Source of the DNA: a bacterium
Lineage (GTDB): Bacteria > Auribacterota > Auribacteria > Auribacterales > Auribacteraceae
Direction: 5' to 3'
NCBI GenBank assembly: GCA_024233545.1
Contig: JACKPL010000003.1
Location: forward strand, 64,584-128,583
DNA: 64,000 nt
Shown here: piece after piece, positions 3,885 through 33,439 of the stretch
Position numbering within the stretch: the first letter of the stretch is position 1
How the letters are laid out: every line of letters begins with the position of its first letter
The notes under the pieces: model-generated
What the model saw: only the letters and a program-made list of their open reading frames with translations
Databases searched by the model: none
What the model was told of the DNA's origin: nothing
Program-made: the position numbers and the translations under genes

Positions 3885-4158
3885 GGCTGTGCTGGATGGG
3901 GAGTTAGCGGTGCCCTGTAACCTGCAATCCGCTCTAGCAGGGTTTAAAGCCGTTCCGAGGCCATTCAATTTTTCGGCGCGGAACCCAATTGGCGATCGAT
4001 GATAGCCGGGCTCTATGCAATAGGGGCTTACGAACCCCGTCAGGGCCGGAAGGCAGCAGCGGTAAGAAAGTTACCCTATGTGCCGTAGAACTACCTGGCA
4101 GGAGTTTGGCAATTGATGGATGTACTGGAAAATGGGGTCAACGTTCGGTCGCACAGCC
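3885..4158 (+). ncRNA. ffs: signal recognition particle RNA, long (Bacillus-type, Alu-domain-containing) form
   Basis: Domain IV motif GTCAGGGCCGGAAGGCAGCAGC plus ..GTGCCGTAGAACTACCTGGCAGG. The 5' region GGGGAGTTAGCGGTGCCCTGTAACCTGCAATCCGCTCTAGCAGGG is nearly identical to my recollection of the B. subtilis scRNA Alu domain. Ends pair as GGCTGTGC (3885-3892) / GCACAGCC (4151-4158). It sits directly upstream of dnaX, as in Bacillus. Confidence 0.9.
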
Positions 4159-6914: not shown

Positions 6915-8099
6915 TTATATCTTGTATTTTCGTTTCAAAAAGCTTGCAATACTCAATCCAAGCAAGATAAAAGTTGCCGGTTCGGGAATAGGAACGGGAG
7001 ATGAAACGGAACCGGTAATCACGTCATTTCCGCATACAGCTGTACCGAAAATAAAATCGAATTCATTCCAATCGCTCGATTGATTGGCGCCGGACAAAGT
7101 GATTTCCCATCGATATTGAGCATAAGTTTCTTGATAATGTATAAAAATGTCGTCCGGTATATCCCATCCGATTCCATAAATATCAAAATACCAATCATTC
7201 ATATCTTGCCGGTATTGTTGCCAGTCGTTGGATAGTGTGGTTTGGTAAAGGGGAGAACCGCTAGCGTTATATTGAATGTTCCCTAAACCATCCCGCAAGA
7301 ACGGTTTAAAGCCGGTTGTTTCGATGTAGTTTTTATAGTACAAATCTTCATAGTTTGGCTGTTGTGTTACTTGAACATTGATTGATACTTGAACTCCGGT
7401 GTTTGTTGCATATTGCGTAAAGACAGGGATTGTTTTAGGCGCGGACTCATCGTAATTTTCAGCGCCGCCGCCAGCGATTAAAGTTGTGTCGTACGGTTTG
7501 AGCCATGAATTGACAGAATAGAGCCCTACGGCTAAATCATCATAATCATGGTTATAAACTGTTCCAAGCCGTTGGGTTCCCCATGAATTGATGTGCGCTT
7601 CGGTAACGATATATTCTTGGTGGTCCTGAAGGACAATGCTTTTATCCCATGTCCCGTCTTGATTAAGGTCAATAAAAAAATCGGCAGTATGAAGGATTCC
7701 AAGCCCGGCGTCTTCGTTAGTGAAAGTTGTCGGTACGCCGTTTGACTGCCATTCTGCCGGAGGCGTTCCGCCGATCGCACGGAGCAAATCATACGTATAC
7801 CCAAAATTAGTGTAGTAGCTCAGAGGGGTATTTGTCGATTTATGCCCTTGATTAGTGTTTATGCCGATGATCAAATCCTGCTGATCCCATGTAAAATCGA
7901 CACTATAAGTGTCTTGGAATCCAATTTTCGGTTTCCATCCGAAAAGAGTTGCATTACCTTGGCTATCCCAGTGGACTTCCTGTACTTTTGTCGCATCATC
8001 CGGAATAACTATAGGATTTCCCATAAGCGATGAAGTAAAACTTGCGCAAGTTGTTATGCCAATACATATGCACTGCAGTAGCAATAATGTTCGATTCAT
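6915..8099 (-). CDS. PEP-CTERM sorting-domain protein (394 aa)
   Basis: Signal peptide MNRTLLLLQCICIGITTCASF. C-terminus reads ..SSPVPIPEPATFILLGLSIASFLKRKYKI. Confidence 0.85.
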   Translation of the reverse strand: MNRTLLLLQCICIGITTCASFTSSLMGNPIVIPDDATKVQEVHWDSQGNATLFGWKPKIGFQDTYSVDFTWDQQDLIIGINTNQGHKSTNTPLSYYTNFGYTYDLLRAIGGTPPAEWQSNGVPTTFTNEDAGLGILHTADFFIDLNQDGTWDKSIVLQDHQEYIVTEAHINSWGTQRLGTVYNHDYDDLAVGLYSVNSWLKPYDTTLIAGGGAENYDESAPKTIPVFTQYATNTGVQVSINVQVTQQPNYEDLYYKNYIETTGFKPFLRDGLGNIQYNASGSPLYQTTLSNDWQQYRQDMNDWYFDIYGIGWDIPDDIFIHYQETYAQYRWEITLSGANQSSDWNEFDFIFGTAVCGNDVITGSVSSPVPIPEPATFILLGLSIASFLKRKYKI

Positions 8100-9645: not shown

Positions 9646-11070
9646 CTAAAAATAACACGCATTGTTAGGAACCGCTATATTCCAGCCAACCCATACCGTT
9701 TTGAATAAAACGTATGCAGATGCTATTATCAGCCCTGCCTTTACTTTTTTTGACGTTAGTGTTCCGATCCTTTGAATGCAGAGTGCGTCGACAACCGTTA
9801 TAAGCGGAATACACGGGAGAATATAGCGGCATTGCGGGTTTTGCCATATCATCATTGCCGCAAGATAAAGCAAGGCGTATACAGACAACAGAATGACCTC
9901 TGGCTTACACCGGAAAAGGTATCCGGTAAACAGCGTGCAATAGAAAAATAAGTGAACCGGTGCCAGTTCTATGATTCTGAGAATGTAAAAGTACCACGGG
10001 TCATAGTAAAAAAAGCGGGCAGTATCACCGTTTCGCGGAATATGAAAAGGATTAAGAAAAGCAAGAATGTGTTGTCGGCAATAAGCTGAATAGAGGCATA
10101 TGCATATCAGGCAGGAAACAACAATCAGCCTGATATATTTTGCACGAATAAATTTGCAGAAACGATTCCGGAATTTCAAGAGAAAAATCAGTCCGGCAAA
10201 TCCCGTTGCGCAAGGGAAAAACCATTTTTTTGCAAGAACCATGATCTTGGCTATTTCTTCGCAGTGTTCTTCCGAGAAGGCGGCGGTTCCGTACACGCTG
10301 GCTATCCTGTATCCCCACGGTAAAAAAATAAGAAATGCAATGAACAGTGCGGAAAAAATATATTTTCTCCGTTGCGGGAACAGAAACAAACCCGCAACAG
10401 GCAAAGCCAGTGCTATGAATGCGGGATATTTTGTGATGCATGCCAGTCCGAGCGCTATACCTGCATGTATCCAGTATCGGGTATCTTCGATGAGCAAGAT
10501 AAAGTAATATGCAAATATGGTTAGTAAACATGCAAGCATTGTATCAATCCATATTTTCTGAGAGCAAATCCAGAAAACCGGTTCGATTGTTAGGATGCAT
10601 GCGGCAATTAAACCTGTTGAAGGCGATCCGCATTTCTTTGCCGTCAAATAGGTATATAAAATGCACAGAAGCCCCCAGAACAAAGACGGGATCACTCCAT
10701 AGCGGTATATAAGATTTGTCGAGGTATACGTTTGCTGATTATAGCTTGCATGAAAGTATGGTTTCATTGCCGGCTGAAACAGTTCCACGATTTTATATGT
10801 CAGCGCGATGGTTGCCGGATAAAGCGGAGGATGTTTAAACAAAGGGTTATCCAGATAGTCAGGCGGATCGAGGGGACCGGTACACTGCGAAAGAAAATTA
10901 TGCGTATTATAAGAAAATAGCCCTTCGCGCATTTGAAGCGCAAGGCTGACATACAACGGTTCATCAAACGTCAGATTATGCGGTGCGTATGATCCCGGGA
11001 CCCTTATGGCAATCGATAGTATCCCAAGAACTGCCAACGAGAGAAGGTGTATAATCTGTTTTTTATTCAT
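9646..11070 (-). CDS. GT-C fold membrane glycosyltransferase (ArnT/PMT family-like)
   Basis: 474 aa and polytopic. The first loop reads ..HNLTFDEPLYVSLALQM, the DE motif position seen in GT39/GT83-type enzymes. It shows the typical ArnT-like hydrophobicity pattern. Confidence 0.65.
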   Translation of the reverse strand: MNKKQIIHLLSLAVLGILSIAIRVPGSYAPHNLTFDEPLYVSLALQMREGLFSYNTHNFLSQCTGPLDPPDYLDNPLFKHPPLYPATIALTYKIVELFQPAMKPYFHASYNQQTYTSTNLIYRYGVIPSLFWGLLCILYTYLTAKKCGSPSTGLIAACILTIEPVFWICSQKIWIDTMLACLLTIFAYYFILLIEDTRYWIHAGIALGLACITKYPAFIALALPVAGLFLFPQRRKYIFSALFIAFLIFLPWGYRIASVYGTAAFSEEHCEEIAKIMVLAKKWFFPCATGFAGLIFLLKFRNRFCKFIRAKYIRLIVVSCLICICLYSAYCRQHILAFLNPFHIPRNGDTARFFYYDPWYFYILRIIELAPVHLFFYCTLFTGYLFRCKPEVILLSVYALLYLAAMMIWQNPQCRYILPCIPLITVVDALCIQRIGTLTSKKVKAGLIIASAYVLFKTVWVGWNIAVPNNACYF

Positions 11071-11435
11071 ATATAGTTCTTTTCATCATATAAACTCAGT
11101 TAGCTTAAGAGCATTGTCTATTTTTTTATGGTATTTTGCAAGTGTTAAAGGCACTGTTTCAAATGGCAAAATAACCGGAATCGTATGGGGGATAAATTTT
11201 ATTTAAAAATACTATTTATTACCGGATTAAAAATAAAATAAATAATAAAATCCAGCAGAAATTCTTTAGTGTTCAAAATGATGAAATAAGAAAAACTTTT
11301 ACGGTTTAACGTAATGATTGAAAAAAAAGCGGCTATTATCTTTCCTTTAGAAAACCTCTAATATTTTGATAACAATTCTCTGTTATTCTCAAAGCATCAT
11401 AAAACAAAAAGCACACTTCATAACTAGGTAACGTA

Positions 11436-14400
11436 ATGCGCAGAAAAAATAAGAAGTATATAACTATCATTGCTTGGCTTTGTGTTGCGGGAATTTTACA
11501 CGATGATTACCAATGTTACGCATTTGCGGCAAAGAAGGAAAACCCTTCAGCAGAAGCAGTCCAAAACAGTTCGATAGGATTAACCCGCGATAAGAAAGAT
11601 AATGCATATTCTGCTGAAAACGGCGTTAAGCCGACGGTATATCTGGTGCAGGATGCGCATTGCGTTCCGGATATTCAGCACACTATTTATTCGATTCTCA
11701 ATGACCTGCATGCCAACCATGGCGTCAGCCATGTTTTTGTCGAAGGCTGTACCGGCATACAGGATTACGCTTATTTGAGGTTGTACCCTTTAAATGATAA
11801 AAAGAAACGGATTCTCAATGAGTTCTTGCAACGAGGCATTATAAGCGGCGTGGAATATTTTTCTGCTCTCGCTTCAATGGAAAATCAGTTAAATATTGTC
11901 GGATTAGAAACGTTGTCGCTGTACAACCGCAATATTTATGCATTGCGCACCTTATCTGATTCAAAAGCGGAACACGAGGTTCTCTTTGAACTGAAAAGTA
12001 CCATGGTAAAATGGTTTGACGAGCATGGCGTGCGAGAGTTAGCCGCCGCGTTACGGCGCATGGAGCTTGTATCTGCCGCAAAACTAGCAGGAGATATCAT
12101 AGTAGAATGCGAACTTGACGGCAGATCGGAAATACTCGATTCTGTTCCCGATTTAACTGCGTATTATCATGCAGTATGGGCTTTGTCGACTTTGGATATT
12201 AACTGCGTTTTAAGTGAACTGACTGCATTGCAGAACGATACCCAATACCTTAAAAAATTCTCTGCGGTGTCTCCAGAGCAAATTCGTTCAAAAATTCGTT
12301 CTTTATTTGCCGATCCGCTGGCATCGCATACTGCGGATACCGATGTGTTGATGATGATTGAAGGCAAAGAGCCGTATTCAAATGCTGAAGAATGGATCAA
12401 ATGTTCGCGTGAAGTAAATCAATCGAATTTATCGGAAATCAATGCTCAGGTTGATAGGGTGATTCAACTCTATTTGGATGCGCTTTGTGATTCTGAAGAG
12501 CATCGGACAGTACTCCGGTTTTATCGTGATACCGCTCGCCTTCAACAGTTGTTGATGCTGGAATTGTCTGCTTCTGAATCAGCGGCGCTTATGGAAGAAT
12601 CGCTTCTTGAGCACATTCGCGCCGGAGCACAAAATTTACCGCCTGTTTTGCGCACAAAAAGCGTTGCGGTTCTTAGCAGTTTAGATGCGGCAGTAGCGAA
12701 TGCTGTAGATTTTTATTCCTGTGCCGCGGTAAGGGATTGTGCGATGATGAACAATTTTTATGCAGAGTACGAACGCTTGCAGGGACCGTGTGTACTCGTG
12801 TTGGGAGGATTCCATTTAGATTATTTTGTACAGCGGTTTCAGGCGGAAAAAATCCCGTTTATTATTCGTAAACCTGAAACGTCAAATATGGCTGATTCGA
12901 TCGAAAAAAAAAGGTATTTTCAGCATTTCATGACTCGTTTTACCGGCAGTGAATTTATTTATAACGAGAATTCGCTTGCTGTTGAGCCGGTTCTCAGCGC
13001 GTCTGGTTCAGGGCATAGCGGGCCGTCGGCGGTATGGTTTAATGAAGTGCTGGCAGGATTAGTTGATGAAATAAAACCGTATCCGTCATTAGCGGCGCAG
13101 TGGATTGCCGCTTTCCGCAATCACATTGATTTTGCGGCTGATAAAATAAAAAATTTAATCGTTCTCGGCACAATAACGGCAATGCTTGGAATGGGAGGCG
13201 TTGCCGAGGCACAGGAAGGAAACGGTACTCAACTGATAAATCCGCCCGGCGTTGTTGTTCAATTAACCCAAGATCAACTCACACAGCACATTCTTGCTTA
13301 TAGCCGGCCGGTTTCGGTGGAGCAAACTCAAATAACCCAAGACATTTTATCCGGCAACAGCGATTTGCAAAACCGCGCCTTTCATGTGCTGGAAGAACGA
13401 GGCACAACCGGATTGTTATCGGACGTCTTCCTTGGAAATGACAACGACGAGTTGCGCCGCACAATTATCAGCCGTTTGATTGCAACGGATAATTACACTG
13501 TTTTGCAAATACTTTTTCAAAATATTACGGAAAAAAATGCACCTGAACACCTACAAAAAATACGCCCGCTGTTTGATGAAATGATGCTGAGCAGTTTTTC
13601 GGCACGCCCTGAACTTCTCCATAATTTTCAGTCGTCACAAGACAGTAACGCGCGCCATGCTATGCATATTCTTCTGGCGTATTATACGCAGGCATCAACA
13701 GGAAGCCTCCGCGATGCTTTAGCAAGTGTATTAGTCAATTCTTTAGATGAACGCGAACTCGTTGCGTTGTACCTTGGGTATACCGATGGGCTTTCACGCG
13801 GGAATCCTGTATGGCAGGTCATGGAGCCTTCTCAAACGACAGCTTTTTTCCGGCACGGAAGTACAACATTAAAAAATCTTGCATATAAGAAACTGCTTGA
13901 ATCGTCTGTTGTGCCGGCGCTTGAAAAGATCATACGGCTTAATACGAAATCGAAGGGGTTGACTAACTTATTATACAGCGATCTTGTTGAGGATGCGCGC
14001 AGTCTTCTTGTATTGCATCAGGAAAAAAACCCTGCTTTTTTATCGGCTGTCGAAGCGGTCTTCCCCGACATTTATCAAAACAGCATCAATGAAATACAGC
14101 GCGATATGGATCGGATACAGCAAACCATATCCTTTAACGCTCCTCACGAATACCCGCCGTTACAACCGGCAGGAACGCTGAGGGTTCTCCGTACTGCAAA
14201 TGCACAGGACGCTTCACTGGCGATGATTTATCTCGATAGAAACGCTTCAATGGGCGATTGGGCAGACGTCGATGCATTTATTCAGTCCGGCGCAGATTCG
14301 CGGCTCAGAGAAAACGCTTTGCGGCAGTATTACGGTTCTTCAGTTTATAAATTAGTGGCGTGTTATGATAAATTCGACGGAATTGATCCTGTGATGCAGG

Positions 14401-17400
14401 ATGCTGTCGTCTCTGTCCTCGAAAAGCTTTTTACGGCAAACAGCCGGCAGTATTTTCCTCTCGCACAGTATAATGAGTATATAAATAGAGGGCTTATACT
14501 TGTTGCGCGTTCTCAAAGTGCGCAAAATAAAGAACCGTCCGCTTGGGAATACTTATTGCGTTCCACAGAGACAGAATATCAGCTCTATCGCGCTTTGCAC
14601 AACACAACATTTGAAGGTATTACATTGACCGAACAGGAAATCAGCGATGTGCAGAACGAATTGCTCGTCCGGTTTTTACGGACAAGTTTACAGCAACGGT
14701 TGCAAGAACTCAGCTTGTCTACAACGCCGGCATGGTTTAACCCTTCGGAAGACAACCTTTTAGAAATACAGGAAGATTTGGAACTGCTTGATGCGCGCCT
14801 GCTTGAAAATCCACAAACCTTGATTGAAAAACATCGCCTTCACGAGGAGTATACACAATGGCAAAATCGCAGTATCGATATACAAAACCGCACGTATTAC
14901 CGGCCTTCCATTGTTCATAAAATGATTGATGTTGCCAAAATTCCTATTTTAACCATTTTAGGTGTCATCATTACGCTTCTGACCGGATTTAGTTTGGTGC
15001 GCAAAAAGATGAAAGCTGAAAAAACGAATGGAGACTCTGATTCTTTTGCTGGAAAAATGCATAGAGCAGTGACGGTGGTTGAACGATTTATTGAGTTTAG
15101 TGAAGAACAAATTACCCCTGCACATGCCGATGAACTGCAGGAAGCAGTTCATACCCTCAACGGTGACATGAAATACCATGTCAGTTTGGCATCAACCGTC
15201 GAACTTCTTGAAAAAATTGAGGTATTCTATGAAAACACTGAACACTCAAAAGAACTTCGTGAACAACTGGCAAGCATTCATCAAACAATACAGAGATTTC
15301 ATAAAAGCAATAAACATAAGCTTATTCTTTTTGAGGATGAATCAAAGCAGAAAAGCACACAGAAAGCAACGTTTAAAACGCTTATTACCCACATGCTTTC
15401 AATGGGCAACGTCAGGAGCCAGCTTATTAGCGAGATGAAAAAAATAATCAATGTTGAGCAATTCGAAAAAGTATATAAATCGCGGCGATTAAAAATCCAG
15501 CTGTATAAAACGATTGCGCTAACGGCGAAATTTATGTTTTTTGGTATTCTCATCGCTACGCCGTTCTCGACAGTAGTAAGCGGGTTCGGATTTATTCTGA
15601 TGGTGCTTTCCCTGCATGCTTTGGATGTTATGATGTTGTATACACTGAGCCGTAATTACGATGAAATTACAAAATGGTTTGCGTTCCATTTATCCCGTGC
15701 GTCGAAATTCGATTCGCGAGTCGAAGCGCAAATCACCGCAAAATCAATTGCCGACGGCGAGGCGGCATTATGGGCAACTGGGCAAAGTGTCATCAATTTT
15801 ACCGGTGCGGTAGCAACGATGGTGTTTCTCAGCCCGTGGTATATACTTCCTTATGCGGTTTATATGATTTTCGGCATTCTTCGGTGGAGAAGCATGATAA
15901 AACAATCCGACGGGTCGACGAGCGATACGTATTACAGCCCGCTGTATGATATCGAGCACAAGGTGCAGAACCCTGCTGTGGCAGTCGCGTTTGGAGCCGT
16001 TGTCGAAACATTTATCGTAACGCAATTGCTGGAAGCGTTAACGAAAACCGGCAGTTCAAAGTTTGTCAGCGGTTTTCGAAAAGCATACCAGCAAGCCCAA
16101 ATAAGCCTGAATTATCTTACGGGGATTATTGACGACAAAAAAACCGTTACCCGTCAAACATGGGAGGACAACGGAAAAACAGTTATAAGGGCGACAACAG
16201 TTTTTAATCGTTTTAACTACAACCTCATTACCTCAAATATTGTCAATGGAGCACAGCACCCTGTAGTGAGCGATGTCACTTTGTCAATTGGGCGAGGAGA
16301 AATGGTGTATATCGATGCTTTGCCCGGGATGGGCAAAAGTACTCTGGGGCGAATGCTGGCTCTCTACCGCACTCCTCTCTCAGGATCGGTTAGCGTTGAA
16401 ACGGCAGGGCGTGATATCCAAGTAACGCCGCAAACCGTATCGCATCATTTATTGCGCCGTTTTTTTAAATATTTGAAATTCAAAGATATTCCTGTTTTAT
16501 CAGCAAAACAAATACTCCTAGAAGCAGAAAAACCGACAGGCGAATTTATTAAAATCGCCTCAAAATTTATACCCGGATTTAAAGAACGATACATGGACAG
16601 AGACCTTGGCAGTTTGGGATTTAATGAAAAGAAACTGTTGATGCTGGTTCTCTATGCCTATATCAATGACCCGAAATTTTTAGTGCTGGATGATATGTTT
16701 AGCGGCCTGCACATTGATACAGCCGAGTTCATTATGGATTTCCTCGCTTACCTTTCCCGTGAACGCGGGATAACAATTGTTGCGATTGACACCGATATTC
16801 CCAAACAAATCCGCAATCAATTTGATACAAGCTATACGTTGAGTGCAGGAAAGCTGATTTCACAGAAGGATCATAATGAGCTGATGTTGCGCCTCGATCG
16901 GGAAATCGAAGTGGAAGAAAAAAATGGTGCACGGAAAACTCTTGTGCAAACGGTTCAATCTTCCGGTGCTGACAAAAGTTCCCCACTACAGAAACCTGCT
17001 GAGAAACAAGTATCTCCTATGGATTTTTTTGACGATGAATCGCCTCTCTTCACTCAAAAAACTGCGGAAGAGGCGCAGGAATTCTCCGAACCGTTCAAAG
17101 TGTCCGCTACGGTTCCAATAGGCAGTTCCAGTGTTCCAGAACCGGATTTTTTCGATGAAGCGCCTCCTGTCTCTCCACAAAAAGAAGCTGTGGCGGAAAG
17201 GAAAAGCCAATCCAGCGTATTGGACGATTATATAAAACTGCTCCACACGACTGCTCGAAAATCTACGACGGTAGAACGGTTTAACCGGAACACCCCGCAT
17301 GATAATTTGCTTACATTCATCTATGCAGTATTAGAGCAAATCAAAGCGTACGTATCACTGAAAGACCCAAATCAGCGAATGCACATGATTCGGGCATATA

Positions 17401-18308
17401 CACAGGGAACACGCGAGCAGAAAATTGCCGCTCAGATTATGCGCCGTACGCGCAAAGGAACAAAAACGCGGTTTGTTAATGAAATTATCAACTATATTTC
17501 TTACTCAGATTTAGCAGATGATTTTACAGTTGATACGTTAACGAATAACGAAGTGAGAGAATTGGTCAAAACAGAGGTGCTTCAACGCAGATTAGCCCAG
17601 CTATTGGCCGATGTTATTATGTATGTCGATGTTTTTGGCGAAGAAGATATTCCTCACCGTATGAAATTGTGGCGGGATTATTCCCTGCCGGATGCTTCAC
17701 CGGAACAAAAAATCGCGGCGTATATCATTTCCAAAATACTTGAACAGCAAGGCAGTGAATACAATATTACGGGAAAATCGTTTAACGACCGCAAACAAGC
17801 GCTTATCCATGCAGTCCACTACATCACCGGTGAGAAAGATTTGCGCGAACAGTACGATGCGGTTATCAGGCATACACCTGTTTCGGAAATTGTTGATTTA
17901 GTGACGTTAGAATTGCATAACCGCCGTACCGAACTCATTACTGAAATACAACAAAAAGCGCCGGTTATTCATGGCGAAAAAAGCTCCTTTAACCGCTCAG
18001 GGCGGTCGTTATATGAACTATGGGGCATCGTTTCACTGCTCAAGGAGTACGGTGTGAACGATGACTTACTGCCTTTGGCATTACATGGCTTTTCTTTCAA
18101 ACAATTGCGCAATGTGCTATTCGGGCTTCGCGATGCCGGAGTACCGATAACCGAACAAACGCTGAGAATGAATCTTTCGCTTGAAGGAATGCCCCCGCAA
18201 AATTCACCGGTTGCTCCTTCCGATGCAGAGCGGTTAGATGAAGAAAAACAGCCGACACCGCCAAAACCGTTCATGCAGTTTCATCATGTATTCGATTGGG
18301 CGGCATGA
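11436..18308 (+). CDS. giant (2,290 aa) multi-pass membrane protein with internal ABC-type nucleotide-binding domain; function unknown
   Basis: Uninterrupted 6.9-kb ORF. Signal/anchor at aa 8-22, TM segments near aa 571-590 and 1166-1187, and a cluster at 1357-1535. HEAT-like helical repeats occupy aa ~640-1160. P-loop ALPGMGKST at nt 16317-16343 and Walker B FLVLDD at nt 16677-16694. The C-terminus has duplicated helical repeats. Confidence 0.85.
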   Translation: MRRKNKKYITIIAWLCVAGILHDDYQCYAFAAKKENPSAEAVQNSSIGLTRDKKDNAYSAENGVKPTVYLVQDAHCVPDIQHTIYSILNDLHANHGVSHVFVEGCTGIQDYAYLRLYPLNDKKKRILNEFLQRGIISGVEYFSALASMENQLNIVGLETLSLYNRNIYALRTLSDSKAEHEVLFELKSTMVKWFDEHGVRELAAALRRMELVSAAKLAGDIIVECELDGRSEILDSVPDLTAYYHAVWALSTLDINCVLSELTALQNDTQYLKKFSAVSPEQIRSKIRSLFADPLASHTADTDVLMMIEGKEPYSNAEEWIKCSREVNQSNLSEINAQVDRVIQLYLDALCDSEEHRTVLRFYRDTARLQQLLMLELSASESAALMEESLLEHIRAGAQNLPPVLRTKSVAVLSSLDAAVANAVDFYSCAAVRDCAMMNNFYAEYERLQGPCVLVLGGFHLDYFVQRFQAEKIPFIIRKPETSNMADSIEKKRYFQHFMTRFTGSEFIYNENSLAVEPVLSASGSGHSGPSAVWFNEVLAGLVDEIKPYPSLAAQWIAAFRNHIDFAADKIKNLIVLGTITAMLGMGGVAEAQEGNGTQLINPPGVVVQLTQDQLTQHILAYSRPVSVEQTQITQDILSGNSDLQNRAFHVLEERGTTGLLSDVFLGNDNDELRRTIISRLIATDNYTVLQILFQNITEKNAPEHLQKIRPLFDEMMLSSFSARPELLHNFQSSQDSNARHAMHILLAYYTQASTGSLRDALASVLVNSLDERELVALYLGYTDGLSRGNPVWQVMEPSQTTAFFRHGSTTLKNLAYKKLLESSVVPALEKIIRLNTKSKGLTNLLYSDLVEDARSLLVLHQEKNPAFLSAVEAVFPDIYQNSINEIQRDMDRIQQTISFNAPHEYPPLQPAGTLRVLRTANAQDASLAMIYLDRNASMGDWADVDAFIQSGADSRLRENALRQYYGSSVYKLVACYDKFDGIDPVMQDAVVSVLEKLFTANSRQYFPLAQYNEYINRGLILVARSQSAQNKEPSAWEYLLRSTETEYQLYRALHNTTFEGITLTEQEISDVQNELLVRFLRTSLQQRLQELSLSTTPAWFNPSEDNLLEIQEDLELLDARLLENPQTLIEKHRLHEEYTQWQNRSIDIQNRTYYRPSIVHKMIDVAKIPILTILGVIITLLTGFSLVRKKMKAEKTNGDSDSFAGKMHRAVTVVERFIEFSEEQITPAHADELQEAVHTLNGDMKYHVSLASTVELLEKIEVFYENTEHSKELREQLASIHQTIQRFHKSNKHKLILFEDESKQKSTQKATFKTLITHMLSMGNVRSQLISEMKKIINVEQFEKVYKSRRLKIQLYKTIALTAKFMFFGILIATPFSTVVSGFGFILMVLSLHALDVMMLYTLSRNYDEITKWFAFHLSRASKFDSRVEAQITAKSIADGEAALWATGQSVINFTGAVATMVFLSPWYILPYAVYMIFGILRWRSMIKQSDGSTSDTYYSPLYDIEHKVQNPAVAVAFGAVVETFIVTQLLEALTKTGSSKFVSGFRKAYQQAQISLNYLTGIIDDKKTVTRQTWEDNGKTVIRATTVFNRFNYNLITSNIVNGAQHPVVSDVTLSIGRGEMVYIDALPGMGKSTLGRMLALYRTPLSGSVSVETAGRDIQVTPQTVSHHLLRRFFKYLKFKDIPVLSAKQILLEAEKPTGEFIKIASKFIPGFKERYMDRDLGSLGFNEKKLLMLVLYAYINDPKFLVLDDMFSGLHIDTAEFIMDFLAYLSRERGITIVAIDTDIPKQIRNQFDTSYTLSAGKLISQKDHNELMLRLDREIEVEEKNGARKTLVQTVQSSGADKSSPLQKPAEKQVSPMDFFDDESPLFTQKTAEEAQEFSEPFKVSATVPIGSSSVPEPDFFDEAPPVSPQKEAVAERKSQSSVLDDYIKLLHTTARKSTTVERFNRNTPHDNLLTFIYAVLEQIKAYVSLKDPNQRMHMIRAYTQGTREQKIAAQIMRRTRKGTKTRFVNEIINYISYSDLADDFTVDTLTNNEVRELVKTEVLQRRLAQLLADVIMYVDVFGEEDIPHRMKLWRDYSLPDASPEQKIAAYIISKILEQQGSEYNITGKSFNDRKQALIHAVHYITGEKDLREQYDAVIRHTPVSEIVDLVTLELHNRRTELITEIQQKAPVIHGEKSSFNRSGRSLYELWGIVSLLKEYGVNDDLLPLALHGFSFKQLRNVLFGLRDAGVPITEQTLRMNLSLEGMPPQNSPVAPSDAERLDEEKQPTPPKPFMQFHHVFDWAA

Positions 18309-18332: not shown

Positions 18333-19442
18333 CTAAGGCACTGTGGGGAAAACAACTGCTTCGCTGATACAAAGATTCACTGCTACGCGAGTATTGAGTT
18401 CCCAATTGCACTCAGGCGGCATGTCTGATAAAACCGTTTGTTTGGAAGGCAGGCTGATAGTATAACGAAACGTTGAACCTAAGAATTGTTTTTTTATAAG
18501 CACGCCGATTCCTGCTGTATGTTGCTGTACGGATAGATCGCATGGTTTTAGCATAACTTCCAGTACGGGAATCTGTCTGTATTGCATAGGGCACGGAAGG
18601 GTGCCGATTTCAGTAACAATATGGTTGCCGGAAACGTGTCCTTGTAGAAACGATGCATTTCCTATGAAGGCGGCAATGAACTTGGTTTTCGGATGCCGGT
18701 ATAAGTCCCATGGCGTATCGAATTGTTCAATGATCCCGTTGTTCATCACCAGTACGCGGTCGGCAGTATCAAGCGCTTCGTTTAGGTCGTGAGTTACCCA
18801 GACCGCTGTTGTTTTTGTTTGCTGAATAATGCTTTTCAGTTCTTGAGCAAGGTTGTTGCGCAATTCAGCATCGATATTGCTCAACGGCTCATCCAGCAAA
18901 AGAATTTTCGGATTTGGCGCTAAACTGCGCGCCAGTGCAACTCTCTGCTGTTGCCCGCCGGATAATTCATAGGGGTATCTATTCAGGAAATTTTGAATTC
19001 CAAGCATGTCTGTCAATTCGTGAAGCCTATTGGTTTGGAATTTTTTATCCATTTTTTTTATACCGAACAGAATATTTTTTTTGACGGTTAAATGCGGGAA
19101 CAAAGCATGGTCTTGAAATACCATACCGATTTTTCTCTTTTCAGGAGGGATAAAACTGTTTTTATCGAATAAAACCGAACCATTCACTCTGCACATTCCG
19201 AAGGATGTCCGTTCGAGACCTGATATCAACCGCAAAAGCGTGGTTTTGCCCGAGCCGCTCTGTCCGATAACAACGATGATTTCGCCCTTTTTTATCGCTA
19301 GAGTAACCGGCCCGAATGTGAAAGGCGGTTTATCGCATGCCGGTATCCGGTATGTATGAGCGACATCGTGCAGTTGAACATATGGTTCTGTTGTGCGGTT
19401 AACCATGGTTTCGGATAGTGTGTCTATTGCATTAAGGTTCAT
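18333..19442 (-). CDS. ABC transporter ATP-binding protein, Fe3+/polyamine (FbpC/PotA) type
   Basis: Walker A GQSGSGKTTLLRLISGLE, signature LSGGQQQRVALARSL, Walker B ILLLDEPLSNID and a C-terminal TOBE-like regulatory domain. Confidence 0.9.
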   Translation of the reverse strand: MNLNAIDTLSETMVNRTTEPYVQLHDVAHTYRIPACDKPPFTFGPVTLAIKKGEIIVVIGQSGSGKTTLLRLISGLERTSFGMCRVNGSVLFDKNSFIPPEKRKIGMVFQDHALFPHLTVKKNILFGIKKMDKKFQTNRLHELTDMLGIQNFLNRYPYELSGGQQQRVALARSLAPNPKILLLDEPLSNIDAELRNNLAQELKSIIQQTKTTAVWVTHDLNEALDTADRVLVMNNGIIEQFDTPWDLYRHPKTKFIAAFIGNASFLQGHVSGNHIVTEIGTLPCPMQYRQIPVLEVMLKPCDLSVQQHTAGIGVLIKKQFLGSTFRYTISLPSKQTVLSDMPPECNWELNTRVAVNLCISEAVVFPTVP

Positions 19443-21031
19443 GTCGCCCCTTTGTGTTGGTGGTGCATGATAGAGTATGCTAACGGCAGAGATGCCGCAA
19501 TTAGCAGTAATGCCGGTGCGGCGGCTTGTTCATAAAACCCTTCGCTTGCGGCAAGCCAAACCTTGACGGTCAGAGAATCGAATCCGGCAGGACGAAGCAA
19601 TAGTGATGCAGGGAGTTCACGCATCGAACTTAAAAACACAATGAGCCACGCACTGAAAAGAGCAGGCCTTATCAAGCGCAGGATGATGTATCCAAAGGTT
19701 TTTAATGATGAAAATCCGAGCAGACGAGCTCCTTCCTCCAATCGGCGTGAAACCTGATTTATGCCTGCACTGATCATTTGAAAACCCTGTGAAAAAAAAT
19801 GTGTCATCAATGCAATGACAATGGCGGCAATGCTGAAATTGAGCGTCGGAACAATAAAACGGAAAACCAAAGATACACCGAGTGCAACCAGTATGCCGGG
19901 CAATGCGAAGCCGAACTGTGCAACCCATGCCGAAATCCTTATCATCCGATTGTTTTTTTCACGGACGCTCAAGTAGGCAACCGGCAATGATAGAGCAACA
20001 CATGCAGTTGCGGTAACCGTTGCAATCAATACACTGTTCAGGCCTGATTGAATGAGACTATCCCAAGAGAATGCCCAGATGCTCAGTGTGCTGGCGGCAT
20101 GCGAAGCCGAGTAACTCCAATACATCAATGTTCCTATCGGCAGAACAAGTCCGGCAATGATAATGGCAATTACAAAACAGGCGGCGGGAATTCTGGCATA
20201 TTTGAGATTGATTATCGATTTGGGACGAAGATGGTTCTTTGCCGATACAAATAACCTCCTTCCGGTAAGCGTATCCTGAATATAAAGCAAGAGAAAGGTA
20301 AACAGCATCAAGAAACAACTCAGCGCATTTGCAATGGAATAATTATAACTTCCGTTTATTTCATGGTATATTGCGCTGACGAATGTCGGGTATCGCAATA
20401 AACTTACCACACCAAAGTCTGAAAGCGCGTACAATCCGGTCAATACACTTCCTGCGGTAATCGCAGGTAGCAGAAGCGGCAACGAAACGGATACCATCCG
20501 TTGCCGACGCCCCATGCCCAAACATTGTGCGGCTTCAGTGAATGTCAGGTCTATGTTATGTATTGATGCGCGGATAATAGTGTATACATAGGGATAAGAA
20601 CCGAGGATAAGTATAAATGCCGCACCGCTAAACCCATATATGGCGGGCAGTGTAACCGGTAAACCGAGAAACGAGAAAAGTTTTTCGCCCACTCCTTTGT
20701 TGCCGAAAAAGTTTACATAACACAGCGCGAGTATATAACACGGTATGATCAACGGCGTTACTAAAGCTGGCGCGAAAAATTTTTTCAACGGCAAATCTGT
20801 GCGTTCGACAAGAAATGCCAGCACGCCTCCTAATACCAATGCACCGCAGGTGACAGTCAAAGCAAGTATGACGGAGTTCACCATAAGATAAGGCACATAC
20901 CGCGTTACGGTACGGTACCAAACGGAAAAATCGACATTGGCGGCGCCGTAAATCACACAGATACACGGCAATGCCATGATACAGGCAACAATCAAACTTA
21001 TGCCGTATTTTACCGGCAGTTTTAGCGCCAT
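19439..21031 (-). CDS. iron(III) ABC transporter permease, duplicated two-domain (FbpB-like)
   Basis: 530 aa with ~12 TM and two BPD-type permease halves. One EAA-like loop reads TEAAQCLGMGRRQRMVSVSLPLL and the second EEGARLLGFSSLKTFGYIILRLIRPA. Overlaps the downstream ATPase gene by 4 nt. Confidence 0.85.
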   Translation of the reverse strand: MALKLPVKYGISLIVACIMALPCICVIYGAANVDFSVWYRTVTRYVPYLMVNSVILALTVTCGALVLGGVLAFLVERTDLPLKKFFAPALVTPLIIPCYILALCYVNFFGNKGVGEKLFSFLGLPVTLPAIYGFSGAAFILILGSYPYVYTIIRASIHNIDLTFTEAAQCLGMGRRQRMVSVSLPLLLPAITAGSVLTGLYALSDFGVVSLLRYPTFVSAIYHEINGSYNYSIANALSCFLMLFTFLLLYIQDTLTGRRLFVSAKNHLRPKSIINLKYARIPAACFVIAIIIAGLVLPIGTLMYWSYSASHAASTLSIWAFSWDSLIQSGLNSVLIATVTATACVALSLPVAYLSVREKNNRMIRISAWVAQFGFALPGILVALGVSLVFRFIVPTLNFSIAAIVIALMTHFFSQGFQMISAGINQVSRRLEEGARLLGFSSLKTFGYIILRLIRPALFSAWLIVFLSSMRELPASLLLRPAGFDSLTVKVWLAASEGFYEQAAAPALLLIAASLPLAYSIMHHQHKGAT

Positions 21032-22065
21032 TGAACTTCTTCCAAAAGGGCACGTGTTTTTTCCAGTTCTGCACCAAGCCGGTCTATTTCGATTTCCATG
21101 ATGCGAACCGCTTCTAATGCGGATGTTCCCGGAGCATTGAGTGATTCCAGCACTTCAGGGTGAGTCTCAACTGCGGGAAGCAAAGGGTATTCGAAATTAA
21201 CTTCCGCAAACAATTTTTGAGCATCAGGAGATACAAGAAAATCAATGAATTGTTCGGCATTACGCCGGTTTGCCGCATTTTTAATAATGCCGGCGCCGCA
21301 GACATTAACAATCTCTCCTCGTCCGCCGGGTTGTTGGTCGAGGTATACAATGCCTACATTCCGTAATGACGGGTCGGTTTCATTCTTTTGGAGATGATAG
21401 TAATAGTGGTTGATAAGTCCCATGGCGTATTCTCCGCGTCCCACAGCCTTGCGCACATCAGTGTGGCTGTCTGACAAAAGGGCTATATCATTATTTTTGA
21501 GTTTCAGGAGAATATCTTTGGTTTTTTCATCGCCCAACTTTATACGCAGTGCACTTACCCATGCTACCAGAGATTCGTTACCGCTGTTTACCGCGGCTAT
21601 TTTTCCGGCATATTTTGTATCGGTTAACGCATCCAGTGTTTTCGGTACAGCGGATTCATCGATCAAATCTTTGTTATAGATAATAGCGCGCGATCTGCCT
21701 GAAATACCAATCCATGATCCGTCTTGAGCTTTGAAATAGGAAGGTATTTTTGCTGTCGCTTCGGATGAATACGACGCAAAAGCTCCGTTCGATTGCAGGT
21801 ATTCCAGCGCGCCAGATTCTTTGGCTATAAATACGTCTGCTGATGGAGCAGTCAACTCGTGCAGAATCTGTTGTGCAAGCGCGCCAGATTTTCCCGCTTT
21901 TAAGACTACTTTGACACCGGTTTGCTGTTCGAAAAGCGAAATTACCGGTTCTATAAGCGGTTGTTTTCGCGCAGAAAACACAACAAGTGTATTATCTTCT
22001 GCCGCGCAATACCGTGCACAAGCAAACTGTAAAAGCACAAGAATAAGCAATAACCATTTTTTCAT
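21022..22065 (-). CDS. periplasmic Fe3+-binding protein of ABC transporter (FbpA/AfuA-like)
   Basis: Signal peptide MKKWLLLILVLLQFACARYCAA. The mature part, ..LVVFSARKQPLIEPVISLFEQQTGVKVVLKAGKSG.., is typical of family-1 solute-binding proteins for iron. Overlaps the permease gene. Confidence 0.8.
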   Translation of the reverse strand: MKKWLLLILVLLQFACARYCAAEDNTLVVFSARKQPLIEPVISLFEQQTGVKVVLKAGKSGALAQQILHELTAPSADVFIAKESGALEYLQSNGAFASYSSEATAKIPSYFKAQDGSWIGISGRSRAIIYNKDLIDESAVPKTLDALTDTKYAGKIAAVNSGNESLVAWVSALRIKLGDEKTKDILLKLKNNDIALLSDSHTDVRKAVGRGEYAMGLINHYYYHLQKNETDPSLRNVGIVYLDQQPGGRGEIVNVCGAGIIKNAANRRNAEQFIDFLVSPDAQKLFAEVNFEYPLLPAVETHPEVLESLNAPGTSALEAVRIMEIEIDRLGAELEKTRALLEEVQWR

Positions 22066-22081
22066 AATGAAACTCTCCTTA

Positions 22082-22933
22082 TTAGTTTAATTTGTAGACT
22101 ATGTCCACAGTCATTGTTAACGTTTTAGAATCAATATCTGAGGGGAATGCAGGGAACGGAGATGCTTTTTTCACCGATTGCTGAGCCGATTCATTGAGTA
22201 TTTTATAGGGGCACGGTTCTTTTACCCTCACAAAGTGCAATGCGCCTGAGGGCAATAAAGCAAACTCCAGTTTTACAACTCCTTGCAGACGCATGCGCCG
22301 TGCGGAAGAAGGGTACTTTTGAGCCGATTGTATATACTGTTTGACAGTATCTTCATAACGCATTACCATTTCGCTATGGATATCGGATACCTGTGCTTTC
22401 TGCGTTGACCGATCATCAGGAGTTTCCTGTTTTTCTTGTTTGATAGACGGTACGGCAGGATTCTCTTGTTCTTTTATAAGCGGTTCGGCCGTTTCCTCTA
22501 CAGGCAGTATCGGTTCTTCTTCAGCCGGTTCCATCGGAGCTTCGTTTGCGTCTTGTTTTGGCAGATCGGCAGTTGTTGTATTTTCGAGAACCGGTTCGGC
22601 AGATTCTTCCTTAGGAATATTGTCGGTGTCTTGAATCGGTATCTCTTCGGATTCCACTGGAATTGCAGACAGTTCTTCTGTGTCTACCGGTGTAGGTTCC
22701 GGCAGTTCGATGGGTTTTTCCAGAGGAACAAACTGTGTCTGTTCGGAGACCTGTTCAAGTTTCGGCAAAAGAGGGGGGGATTCAAATTGAATTTCCAATT
22801 CGATGTCCTCTTTTTTTGTTATGTCTTGTATTTCAAAAAAATTAAAGCTTGATAATCCTACAGCGCCTCCATGAATAAACAAGGATAGCCCAAGGCTGAT
22901 ACCTAAACCATAATTTTCCAGAAATTGTTTCAT
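22082..22933 (-). CDS. tonB: energy transducer TonB
   Basis: N-terminal anchor, a long Glu/Pro-rich spacer (EPTPVDTEELSAIPVESEEIP..) and a C-terminal TonB domain ..YPSSARRMRLQGVVKLEFALLPSGAL..V.V.. Confidence 0.85.
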   Translation of the reverse strand: MKQFLENYGLGISLGLSLFIHGGAVGLSSFNFFEIQDITKKEDIELEIQFESPPLLPKLEQVSEQTQFVPLEKPIELPEPTPVDTEELSAIPVESEEIPIQDTDNIPKEESAEPVLENTTTADLPKQDANEAPMEPAEEEPILPVEETAEPLIKEQENPAVPSIKQEKQETPDDRSTQKAQVSDIHSEMVMRYEDTVKQYIQSAQKYPSSARRMRLQGVVKLEFALLPSGALHFVRVKEPCPYKILNESAQQSVKKASPFPAFPSDIDSKTLTMTVDIVYKLN

Positions 22934-23331
22934 TGCACGGCTCCTTTTTGAGCGGCAATAATAAAATTGTTGGAACCGGCTCGTTTAGCCGTATCAATAA
23001 CCTGAACAGCCAATCCGAAATCGATATGTTCATCGGCGTTCAAAATGACTTTCTTGTGCGGCGAAAGGGAGTTCTTAAGCAATCCGAAGAGTTCGCTGAT
23101 ATCTATTTTCGTATCATTAAAATATAATTCGTTATATTGGTTTATATATATTGTCAGTTCTTGTTGTTCCTGCGGTACGGCGCTCTGTGCTTTGGGCAGT
23201 GAAATAGACAAACCGGGGTTTATTATGAAATTTGCCGTAAGCATAAAGAAAATCAGCAGGAGAAATACGATATCAATTAAAGGAGCGATATTCAATTGGC
23301 AACCGGGACGTTTTGTTCTATCAAAGTCCAT
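22930..23331 (-). CDS. exbD: biopolymer transport protein ExbD/TolR
   Basis: 133 aa, reading ..LNIAPLIDIVFLLLIFFMLTANF.., the conserved TM Asp motif, plus a periplasmic domain. Has a 4-nt overlap with tonB. Confidence 0.9.
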   Translation of the reverse strand: MDFDRTKRPGCQLNIAPLIDIVFLLLIFFMLTANFIINPGLSISLPKAQSAVPQEQQELTIYINQYNELYFNDTKIDISELFGLLKNSLSPHKKVILNADEHIDFGLAVQVIDTAKRAGSNNFIIAAQKGAVQ

Positions 23332-24010
23332 GAGTTTCTACCTTATTTTTTTTGTTTTGGATTGAAACGGCAATCGGATTGCTTATCTGTTCTATGCCGG
23401 TTTTCCGGTATTCTTTACACCATTCTAAAACAGTCGATGCCGCTTCCTTCATGTGTGCGGCGGCGGTATCGATTTTCCCTTCGAAATGATGGTAGAAAAT
23501 CATTGCGGGAATTGCCGCGACAAGACTGGCGGCGGTGGTCATCAGCGCTTCCCAAATACCGCCGGCAAGTACAGATGCGTCAACGTTGCCGCTCAGTTCC
23601 TGAATTTTCATAAATGCCTTTATCATTCCTGTGACGGTGCCGAGCAATCCGAGCAGGGGAGATATATGGGCAATTAAACTGAGTGCACGAAGATGTTTTT
23701 CCATGCGCCGCAATTCCTTGGTTCCTTCAAGATGAATAATTTTCTCCTGTGTTTCTTTTGAACGGTTTTTTGCTTCAATACATTTTTTTACGATATGAGC
23801 AACCGGCCCGGCAGAACGTGCCGCAAGGCCGGATGCCGCATCGAAGTCGCCTGATTGTATAGCGCGTTTTATCGCTTCAAAAAAAGGTTCCTTATTGATA
23901 TGTGCCCGTTTGAGATGAAACATCCGTTCTAAAACAATGGCTCCAACCACAATAGAGCACGCAATGATCGGATACATAAAAAAACCGCCGCGCATTACGA
24001 AATCAAGCAT
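23321..24010 (-). CDS. exbB: MotA/TolQ/ExbB proton channel protein
   Basis: ..ISPLLGLLGTVTGMIKAF..LAGGIWEALMTTAASLVAAIPAMIFYHHF is a classic ExbB signature. ATG at 24010 (MLDFVMRGGFFMYPII..) is preferred over the track start 24109. Confidence 0.9.
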   Translation of the reverse strand: MLDFVMRGGFFMYPIIACSIVVGAIVLERMFHLKRAHINKEPFFEAIKRAIQSGDFDAASGLAARSAGPVAHIVKKCIEAKNRSKETQEKIIHLEGTKELRRMEKHLRALSLIAHISPLLGLLGTVTGMIKAFMKIQELSGNVDASVLAGGIWEALMTTAASLVAAIPAMIFYHHFEGKIDTAAAHMKEAASTVLEWCKEYRKTGIEQISNPIAVSIQNKKNKVETHGL

Positions 24011-24158
24011 ATGTGTGTCCTTGTTACTTAATCCATTAGACTGATCCATTCCATTTTGACAGCATTTCAATAATGAGAATAAGCCAGTATAGTTCCTTAG
24101 TTCTTGCACCCTGAGTGGGGTGTATTTCTTTTTCCTTCATACTAACCGAAACCTTTTA

Positions 24159-26258: not shown

Positions 26259-26261
26259 TGA

Positions 26262-26501
26262 CTATAATCCTCCATCACGAACAACGCCGGTTGACCGGTA
26301 GAGCGCGTGTTTTCTGCTGTTGATGCAAACTCCACAAATATGGTCGTTTTGGATGTTAAACCGTTTCTTTTCATTCTTTTCCAACTGAACAACCGTTCCG
26401 TTATGAATTTTTATAATCACTTCGCCGAATGAGATTGTTTCTATCGCACTGATAATTTCATCAAGGATGCAAGGCGCTATTTTTTCTTTGTGTATGCTCA
26501 T
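26262..26501 (-). CDS. DUF2292 (YezD-like) small protein with extra Cys-containing tail
   Basis: 79 aa. ..ISAIETISFGEVIIKIHNGTVVQLEKNEKKRF matches my recollection of the YezD/DUF2292 core. The tail is ..NDHICGVCINSRKH.. Its start overlaps the CobN-like stop by 1 nt. Confidence 0.6.
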   Translation of the reverse strand: MSIHKEKIAPCILDEIISAIETISFGEVIIKIHNGTVVQLEKNEKKRFNIQNDHICGVCINSRKHALYRSTGVVRDGGL

Positions 26502-31405: not shown

Positions 31406-31427
31406 TGGATTATACTCCTTAGTTGTG

Positions 31428-33213: not shown

Positions 33214-33439
33214 CTTTAGAGATGCGTAAAGCATTGCAAAAAAACAATTTGAAAGTCATATCTATCTTCTGAAAAGCAGGATAGATTATTTGCTTTTAGG
33301 TGGGAACAAGAATTGCGTATCCCTTGATGAATAATCATGAAATAAAAATACATTGTATTGGTCACAGAAACTTTTAAAATTTGATTTTTTTTTCAAAAGA
33401 GAAGAATTTTTATATAAATCCATATTTAAAAGGAGAAAT

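Follow-up and report, generated by a model that had tools for sequence, protein, structure and literature searches.

A 2,290-residue Auribacterota membrane protein with a type I ABC exporter core, degenerate ATPase motifs and a probable hydrolase-type head

Results

The gene, its integrity and its flanks

The stretch of DNA analysed here (the window) comprises 64,000 nucleotides of a bacterium of the Auribacterota (GenBank assembly GCA_024233545.1, contig JACKPL010000003.1, positions 64,584 to 128,583), and our subject is one open reading frame (ORF) within it, 11436-18308 on the plus strand, which encodes a protein of 2290 aa. In this protein the core of a type I ATP-binding cassette (ABC) exporter, with nearly all hydrolysis motifs of its nucleotide-binding domain (NBD) degenerate, is embedded behind a probable hydrolase-type head and a large middle region. 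The ATG start is the first ATG after a stop, and the same protein is found at NCBI as MCP5462226.1, 'MAG: hypothetical protein H7A34_03455 [bacterium]' (MAG, metagenome-assembled genome), encoded by a contig of 257,727 bp. The features of the gene, including its transmembrane (TM) segments and the transmembrane domain (TMD), are the following:

11071..11435: upstream intergenic region, 365 bp, shared with a divergent PMT_2-type gene
11436..11525 (+): signal-peptide-like N-terminus, aa 1-30
11598..13130 (+): N-domain (head), aa 55-565
13155..13211 (+): hydrophobic segment S1, aa 574-592
13233..14930 (+): middle region, aa 600-1165 (~570 aa), from the family alignment
14940..14996 (+): TM helix S2, aa 1169-1187
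15000..15500 (+): juxtamembrane region, aa 1189-1355 (~170 aa), from the alignment
15501..16235 (+): type I ABC exporter TMD of six helices, aa 1356-1600 (helix block 1356-1535), by profile-profile comparison and hydropathy
16236..16925 (+): ABC NBD with degenerate hydrolysis motifs, aa 1601-1830, by Pfam, NCBIfam, PDB phmmer and alignment
16941..17207 (+): acidic/Pro/Ser-rich linker, aa 1836-1924, by composition
17208..18308 (+): all-helical C-terminal domain, aa 1925-2290

The initial annotation of this DNA had described a single 6.9-kb ORF of 2,290 aa, preceded by a 365-bp AT-rich region and convergent with an iron operon across a 24-bp gap that showed no visible terminator, and all of this was borne out. 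The upstream region has a GC content of 26.8%, compared to 44% for the window, and presumably holds the promoters of both divergent genes; a sigma-70 promoter scan of it gave no plus-strand site above shuffle expectation. Downstream, 24 bp separate the ORF from the convergent gene 18333-19442 (-), which encodes the ATPase of an Fe(III)-type ABC importer cluster, and a simple scan detected no terminator-like site in this gap.

An A9 run had also been pointed out as possibly slippage-prone. The run does exist, at 12904-12912 inside the coding region of the N-domain, but slippage or a frameshift there is not in evidence: the alignment positions directly 3' of it, Y494, H497 and F498, are invariant in the family, and because they follow directly, the reading frame must be kept across the run. 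That ordinary genes were joined by a frameshift or misassembly, for instance at this run, is an explanation worth considering for a sequence whose source is a MAG, which contains a homopolymer run, and of which a paralogue (in locus L011) has its reading frame interrupted several times in an assembly of long reads. Against this stand not only the invariant residues straight after the run, but also six independent assemblies with collinear genes of the same domain order (five of 2172-2300 aa, and P0011 of 1702 aa), a partial protein in a second MAG that is 100% identical to residues 1876-2290 (the last 415 residues), and a GC content by codon position that is uniform along the whole ORF. Collinearity of the relatives over their full length, together with invariant residues directly behind the A9 run, rules out in practice that the ORF is an artefact of frameshift or fusion; as judged from these sequence comparisons, such an origin is effectively refuted and hardly credible any longer. 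ORF 11436-18308 is a real, intact single gene.

A small family of collinear relatives

It took an exhaustive HMMER search of 1.84 billion representative proteins, with residues 1100-2290 as query, to find the family. Eight proteins were obtained at E<=1e-30, and beneath them came generic ABC domains, all below 70 bits. The matches include four full-length proteins (2239, 2269, 2291 and 2300 aa), in each of which the matching part occupies the position that it has in the studied protein, a 2172-aa member, the 1702-aa member P0011 and an 861-aa fragment, P0013. Homologues of the full architecture, 2172-2300 aa long and collinear, are thus available in public data. The alignment of seven sequences runs collinearly from end to end at 23-39% identity to the studied protein, and all regions except the linker are conserved; identity to the closest relative, P0007, is 61% in the TMD, 50% in the NBD, 38% in the C-terminal domain, 36% in the middle region and 35% in the N-domain. 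A word-indexed search with the full protein returned just three weak matches, all via the N-domain, while the N-domain alone gave zero matches and the N-domain alignment one partial protein.

The relatives are called 'ATP-binding cassette domain-containing protein' in the source databases and come from Candidatus Auribacterota, an uncultured and little-studied candidate phylum of the PVC group, or Candidatus Auribacter fodinae. A scan of one genome per GTDB species with two N-domain motifs, derived from seven close sequences, gave seven loci in four genomes, all Auribacterota or unclassified, with 1-3 paralogues per genome. As far as these searches reach, the family is lineage-specific, belonging to Candidatus Auribacterota and unclassified bacteria. 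The whole architecture is covered by neither a Pfam nor an NCBIfam model, and no published description of the family or of its head domain was found in the literature searched. The earlier statement that no such family had been described is correct in this respect, but the protein is not unique, given the small family of the same architecture.

Two distant relatives, P0161 (1054 aa) and P0015 (1533 aa), combine a short N-terminal part with the same TM block, a canonical NBD and a glycerophosphodiester phosphodiesterase (GDPD) domain, which sits between the NBD and the C-terminal part (L014:8001-11165 and L015:8001-12602, respectively); P0161 carries the same C-terminal module as the family and ends in AA. 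P0013 was considered as a natural short form and rejected, being the C-terminal piece of a frame-broken P0012-like gene in L011. This paralogue (L011:9863-16363, +) has canonical NBD motifs and at least six frame changes in its long-read assembly, and is either a pseudogene or the product of long-read indel errors. An additional weak N-domain match lies just upstream of it on the opposite strand (L011:7063-8325, -).

The exporter core and its nucleotide-binding domain

The initial annotation had placed a TM cluster at aa ~1357-1535 and an ABC fold at aa ~1605-1815, that is, an exporter-type block near residue 1350 behind two large extra regions split by TM segments, and this layout holds. Kyte-Doolittle hydropathy gave TMD segments at 1359-1377, 1380-1398, 1463-1481 and 1514-1532, to which helices near 1444-1462 and 1499-1514 can be added from the family alignment. 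A sequence-profile match to PF00664 at E<=1 was found neither in the studied protein nor in P0007-P0010. For profile-profile comparison we used 12 exporters taken from the search matches and chosen by hydropathy and Walker A position; PF00664 was confirmed by Pfam in the three that were scanned (P0030, P0068 and P0073). Aligned to this profile by hhalign, the family TMD scored a probability of 95.3% (E 2.3e-8, 217 columns) in local mode and of 97.6% (E 1.5e-11, 280 columns) in global mode, and the alignment was collinear from TM1 to the connector between TM6 and the NBD. The PDB matches to ABCB1 also start ~60 residues ahead of the NBD, inside TM6. On the strength of these profiles, the TM block is indeed a type I ABC exporter domain. 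The studied protein and P0007-P0011 lack 44 alignment columns that are present in P0012, P0013, P0161 and P0015; the missing columns align with the canonical intracellular loop 2 (ICL2), which in its long form is absent here.

With regard to the NBD, Pfam recognised ABC_tran (PF00005) at aa 1612-1754 with 27.8 bits against a cut-off of 25, the best NCBIfam match was of the HlyB type (aa 1550-1817), and phmmer against the PDB found the NBDs of ABCB1 and HlyB (E ~4e-9). Alignment with six canonical exporters gave the following motifs:

Walker A: LPGMGKST, intact
Walker B: LVLD, then Asp (D1753) in place of Glu, so that the catalytic Glu is lost
Signature LSGGQ: LGFNE
Q-loop Gln: Phe; lost in the whole family, including members with canonical motifs
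H-loop His: Thr
D-loop: SGLH
A-loop: no aromatic residue

The LSGGQ signature, the Glu following Walker B, the H-loop His and the Q-loop Gln are therefore all missing from the studied NBD. G1631, G1633 and K1634 of the P-loop and D1752 of Walker B, on the other hand, are invariant in all ten sequences aligned, and five relatives (P0012, P0013, P0161, P0015 and P0017) retain FS(H/T)G(E/Q), LDEP and IDH, the signature reading FSHGEQK in P0012 and P0013. The ABC fold is thus present as first described, but the term 'half-transporter' probably overstates the present role of the protein, because its ATPase is degenerate in nearly all hydrolysis motifs. An ABC ATPase of anti-phage defence was also considered and rejected, PADLOC giving only weak generic NBD matches (E>=1.9e-4, <=19 bits).

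The N-terminal signal and the head domain

The N-terminus consists of a basic MRRKNKK n-region, a 13-residue hydrophobic core and an AxA-type c-region with a conserved H/N-x-D-Y-x-C-x-A stretch; K6, D24 and A29 are invariant in the family alignment. By classical rules it looks like a cleavable Sec signal, and the translation and the family alignment both agree with the signal or anchor earlier placed at aa 8-22.

The N-domain that follows appears as an alpha/beta core split by a helical insertion: in the AlphaFold2 (AF2) model built from a 10-sequence alignment (pLDDT 80.9, pTM 0.73), short strands flank an insertion of ~280 residues. Invariant across the ten sequences are D73, H75, Q81, E103, G104, R115, N166, F426, Y427, R433, G457, G458, H460 and Y494, which yield the motifs D73-x-H75, E103 and G457-G458-x-H460, and D73/H75, E103 and H460 are each located at the C-terminal end of a predicted strand. 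Such a residue set resembles the catalytic set of the TIKI/TraB/erythromycin-esterase superfamily. In RRSP the catalytic 2His/2Glu residues are E3900, H3902, E3930 and H4030; Bcr135 and ChaN are listed as members of the TIKI superfamily, and Bcr135 has the pair His-85/Glu-113 (PMC6254334). The spacing from His to Glu is 28 residues in the studied protein (H75-E103), the same as in Bcr135 and RRSP. Foldseek against the PDB gave zero matches at E<=0.001 for the N-domain model, and the match that led clearly in probability, to Bcr135 of Bacillus cereus (2rad_B/3b55, probability 0.82), was weak (E 0.046, TM-score ~0.2). Pfam applied to ten N-domains at E<=10 detected neither TraB_PrgY_gumN, Erythro_esteras nor ChaN-type domains, nor anything else relevant, and sequence and profile searches of the PDB were empty. 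Because the motif set and the spacing match, the N-domain is probably a very divergent hydrolase domain of the TIKI/erythromycin-esterase type, despite the lack of Pfam or PDB profile support. For what had been called a 'periplasmic-type N-domain', motifs, AF2 model and Foldseek suggest a hydrolase-type label as the better one.

The N-domain has homologues at the start of three giant proteins from Candidatus Omnitrophica, P0001-P0003 (2,528-3,594 aa), and it also heads two proteins, of >3,498 aa and 2,329 aa, encoded in Auribacterota genomes that have the ABC-type member as well (L012:9809-20302 and L013:9794-16783, both on the plus strand). It may be summarised as DAH...EG...GGxH, is covered by no Pfam model, and constitutes a common N-terminal module of otherwise unrelated giant proteins. 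Behind it, the Omnitrophica giants carry iPGM-like, PrmA-like/GT2 or receiver domains.

Hydrophobic segments, middle region and topology

Hydrophobic segments were scored by the Kyte-Doolittle scale, and their orientation was judged from the flanking sums of Lys and Arg (KR) over seven sequences. The helices first proposed at aa 571-590 and 1166-1187 were found again as S1 and S2. S1 is weak (1.66; 1.7-2.1 in relatives) and resembles a signal peptide, with a basic n-region and then AEA followed by Q, whereas S2 is strong (2.27) and conserved in relatives. The ~570 aa between them had been taken for HEAT-like repeats, an identification that did not survive scrutiny: Pfam at E<=1 gave no match of any kind in five members, HEAT, ARM and TPR included, and profile self-alignment revealed no internal repeat (probability 0.1). 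A HEAT/ARM repeat identity of the middle region was consequently rejected, since neither approach recognises tandem repeats in it. A phmmer search of the PDB with the middle and juxtamembrane regions gave zero matches, and the middle region is absent from P0011.

The KR sums around TM1 of the exporter were 36 before and 0 after, the juxtamembrane region ending in a very basic stretch before this helix, and throughout the exporter part the flanking charges alternate as expected for N-in/C-in. With the exporter in this orientation, the juxtamembrane region, the NBD and the C-terminal domain would be cytoplasmic and S2 would be an out-to-in helix; at least the end of the middle region should therefore be outside. 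The sums also favour N-in/C-out for the N-terminal signal (23 before versus 8 after) and for S1 (23 versus 3). As for other proteins with this head, the 2,329-aa paralogue has the signal and the head domain and no further hydrophobic segment, P0002 has a TM helix between the head and its receiver domain, and P0003 has domains of the SAM-methyltransferase and GT2 types after the head with no TM helix between.

The linker and the C-terminal domain

Both the acidic/Pro linker and the duplicated helical C-terminal region of the initial annotation could be recognised, the duplication being weak. The linker is disordered, contains 16 D/E, 11 P and 13 S in 89 residues and is poorly conserved, with 0-32% identity to relatives over 2-76 aligned positions, and largely gapped. 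The AF2 model of the C-terminal domain (pLDDT 74.1) consists of helices throughout, with a disordered stretch just ahead of the last few residues. Profile self-alignment matched aa 1957-2050 to aa 2052-2158 (probability 85%, E 6e-6), while BLAST self-comparison returned a short motif only. Foldseek of this model against the PDB found nothing at E<=0.001 (best E 0.33, non-specific helical bundles), and a PDB profile search with the domain found nothing either.

A conserved last module (~aa 2190-2245) and the tail are shared with shorter, distant relatives. All nine aligned sequences, including that of the distant GDPD-containing P0161, end in Ala-Ala; the typical tail is hydrophobic-hydrophobic-(D/E)-x-A-A, with LLRAA as the one exception, and the studied protein ends ...VFDWAA (window 18291-18305). 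A C-terminal Ala-Ala is the key determinant for recognition of the ssrA tag by ClpX and is favoured by Tsp/Prc. By analogy, the tail resembles an ssrA-like C-terminal degron.

Genomic context

The gene was initially reported to stand alone, and so it does, also at the loci of the four full-length relatives examined, where its neighbours are not conserved; no conserved operon partner was seen in these five contexts. Glycosyltransferase or polysaccharide genes occur near the gene in four of the five, the P0010 locus being without them. In the window the divergent gene, 9646-11070 (-), encodes a PMT_2/ArnT-like GT-C glycosyltransferase, and the neighbours in relatives include PelF/PelG, GT1/GT2, and GT2/GT4/Glyphos_transf/Polysacc_synt. 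A GDPD gene (L002:7659-8429) lies ~1.6 kb upstream of the homologue in Candidatus Auribacter fodinae, and P0161 adjoins an MsbA-like gene and lpxB. We regard the polysaccharide, GDPD and MsbA-like neighbours as hints only.

Elsewhere in the window the following were noted:

2978-3655 (-) and 6915-8099 (-): borderline C-terminal PEP-CTERM motif matches, ~20 bits, under the cut-off of 20.7
3887-4156 (+): full-length 'Bacteria_large_SRP' (signal recognition particle) RNA, 156 bits, E 4e-25, just upstream of dnaX
18333-33042 (-): long cluster with an Fe(III)-type ABC importer (ATPase, double permease, binding protein), TonB, ExbB, a TonB-dependent receptor, a 1,634-aa CobN/Mg-chelatase-like protein, a second ExbB-like protein and a 228-aa ORF with no Pfam match
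33353-48568 (+): 5,071-aa ORF with a single Pfam match, CARDB near the C-terminal third; the N-domain of the studied protein is absent from it by tblastn
48568-49656 (+): 362-aa ORF with no Pfam match
49815-53249 (+): 1,144-aa protein with bacterial TSP3 repeats, NIDO and CarboxypepD_reg domains

The large type of SRP RNA is better known from Firmicutes-like lineages; here it occurs in a window that also encodes TonB, ExbB and a TonB-dependent receptor.

Discussion

A possible re-use of the exporter core and its alternatives

We tentatively favour, as a possible if by no means settled reading, that this intact inner-membrane protein of Auribacterota has re-used its exporter core as a nucleotide-binding membrane scaffold, and not as a pump. 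The ancestor would have been an active half-transporter with the same architecture; P0012 combines this layout with canonical motifs, which argues that the architecture is older than the loss of motifs. Hydrolysis and the coupling between NBD and TMD would then have been released from selection, and the sub-clade of the studied protein would have lost the signature, the catalytic base, the H-loop, the A-loop and most of the ICL2 coupling region. Because the hydrolysis motifs and ICL2 are gone in this sub-clade, the core would no longer pump, and because the P-loop Lys and the Walker B Asp are invariant, selection seems to keep nucleotide binding. What is left would serve as a probably dimeric scaffold and keep the hydrolase-type head, along with the middle region, in place at the envelope; the cytoplasmic C-terminal domain and its AA tail would be a regulatory or turnover handle. 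In a homodimer both composite ATP sites would be defective. A heterodimer in which a canonical paralogue restores one site was considered and dropped, since the protein's own degenerate signature would leave both composite sites impaired.

Several points weigh against this proposal. ATP binding and the loss of hydrolysis are read from motifs, the dimeric state is assumed by analogy with half-transporters, and the scaffold idea names no substrate for the hydrolase, whose TIKI assignment draws on motifs and a weak Foldseek match while Pfam and PDB profiles are empty. Asp in place of the Walker B Glu also occurs in active heterodimeric exporters, and one of the canonical exporters in our own alignment, P0073, has the Walker B sequence 'IFDD'. 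Moreover, the N-in/C-out orientation favoured for both the signal and S1 is self-contradictory for the N-terminal 1,170 residues, as both cannot hold. The signal may act without translocating the head, which would leave the head cytoplasmic and the middle region periplasmic, a layout like that of the peptidase-containing ABC transporters (PCATs); alternatively, S1 may not span the membrane, and head and middle region would then both be periplasmic. The same topology paradox has been noted for the giant proteins of Omnitrophota (10.1101/2023.11.21.568195; 10.64898/2026.06.07.730766).

The main rival is a still active machine that processes and exports in the manner of PCATs, in which the hydrolase cleaves or de-esterifies a cargo and the exporter moves it by means of a slow, non-canonical ATPase site. 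We consider it unlikely, although it accommodates a TMD that is genuinely of the type I exporter kind, a best NCBIfam match to the HlyB type I secretion family and the canonical motifs kept by the same-architecture relatives P0012 and P0013, and although an S1 that spans N-in/C-out would make the head cytoplasmic, like the C39 domain of PCATs. It is less easily reconciled with the joint loss of five hydrolysis or coupling elements and the ICL2 segment in the sub-clade, with the two dead sites that a homodimer would have, with the absence of a conserved adjoining cargo gene, and with an N-terminus that looks like a cleavable signal and would thus place the head outside. The protein might instead modify envelope glycopolymers or lipids, the head being an esterase acting on substituted exopolysaccharide or on glycerophosphate polymers or lipids while the core binds or flips a lipid-linked substrate. 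Glycosyltransferase or polysaccharide genes near the gene here (PMT_2) and in three relatives point in this direction, as do the GDPD domain between NBD and C-terminal domain in P0161 and P0015, the separate GDPD gene upstream in Candidatus Auribacter fodinae and the MsbA-like gene and lpxB beside P0161; Bcr135 was furthermore deposited as 'succinoglycan biosynthesis protein', and the TIKI superfamily includes GumN. These neighbourhoods are not conserved, however, and chance may account for them, as genes of this kind abound in the genomes concerned; P0010 has no such neighbours and nothing points directly to a substrate, all of which makes this role quite doubtful. More speculative still, and improbable as we see it, is that the protein is a membrane dock or dedicated gate for the other giants with TIKI-like heads in Auribacterota and Omnitrophota, where heads would pair or process each other, the core would be a conduit or anchor locked by ATP that is bound and not hydrolysed, and the AA tail would lead to ssrA-type turnover. 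If true, this would amount to a new kind of ABC-derived envelope machine and would open a first route to the function of the giant proteins in these phyla.

ABC exporters count among the membrane machines that are understood best. Should the favoured reading of a re-used scaffold be right, this conserved family would be a clear example from nature of pump re-use: behind a hydrolase-type head, a chain of 2,290 aa has at residue 1350 an exporter that has shed the elements of hydrolysis and coupling and retained the P-loop. The relatives that have intact motifs in the same architecture offer a built-in comparison. The invariant Ala-Ala is a simple lead on regulated turnover.

Comparison with known systems

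Like the type I ABC exporters (ABCB1, MsbA, HlyB; PF00664 plus PF00005), the studied protein has a six-helix TMD followed by an NBD in one chain, with profile-profile homology of 95-98% probability in the TMD, ABCB1 and HlyB matches that reach the NBD from within TM6, and N-in/C-in charges. Unlike them, it carries ~1,350 additional residues ahead of the exporter and a further 460 behind it, lacks a PF00664 match and ~44 residues of ICL2, and has lost the Q-loop, the signature, the catalytic Glu, the H-loop His and the aromatic residue of the A-loop. ABC proteins with non-hydrolytic sites are well known, among them CFTR (site 1), SUR, TAP1 and TM287/288 (degenerate site), and these, too, keep the P-loop and the Walker B Asp while the catalytic Glu, the H-loop and/or the signature are changed. 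They pair a degenerate site with a consensus site, however, whereas a homodimer of the studied protein would have both sites degenerate. The resemblance to PCATs, and to HlyB with its C39-like domain, lies in the union of an N-terminal hydrolase-type domain and a type I exporter in one polypeptide. The head studied here is a TIKI/erythromycin-esterase-like candidate with no Peptidase_C39 match in Pfam, it is split from the exporter by two hydrophobic segments and ~750 residues, and the ATPase behind it is degenerate and adjoined by no cargo gene, in all of which it differs from PCATs.

Within the TIKI/TraB/PrgY/erythromycin esterase/ChaN superfamily, the head is best compared with Bcr135 (3B55/2RAD), its top-probability Foldseek match, and with RRSP. 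Shared features are an acidic-x-His at the end of the first strand, the equally spaced Glu at the end of the next one, a second His after a late strand (GGFH) and a helical insertion between the halves of the core. The head departs from the superfamily in having no Pfam or PDB sequence-profile match and a low TM-score, an Asp in place of Glu as the first acidic residue, a very large insertion, and three family-specific invariant Cys beside the motif residues. The parts of the protein are accordingly of known kinds (a type I ABC exporter and a probable TIKI-type hydrolase), while their combination is undescribed, and so are the scale of the additions, the joint loss of catalytic and coupling elements, the sharing of the head with giant proteins and the invariant AA end.

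Giant multi-TM proteins are also the subject of two preprints on Omnitrophota (West-Roberts et al. 2023, 10.1101/2023.11.21.568195; 2026, 10.64898/2026.06.07.730766). These giants are similar in that the same N-domain occurs in P0001-P0003 and in that their predicted topology is equally puzzling, with cytoplasm-type enzyme domains after a signal peptide. Those papers do not describe the N-domain and report SecA-DEAD or C39 modules, as opposed to the ABC exporter core found here. The head domain is thus a previously undescribed module that starts several giants of Omnitrophota and Auribacterota, and the studied protein, at 2,290 aa far smaller than the Omnitrophota giants, is a member small enough to express and study.

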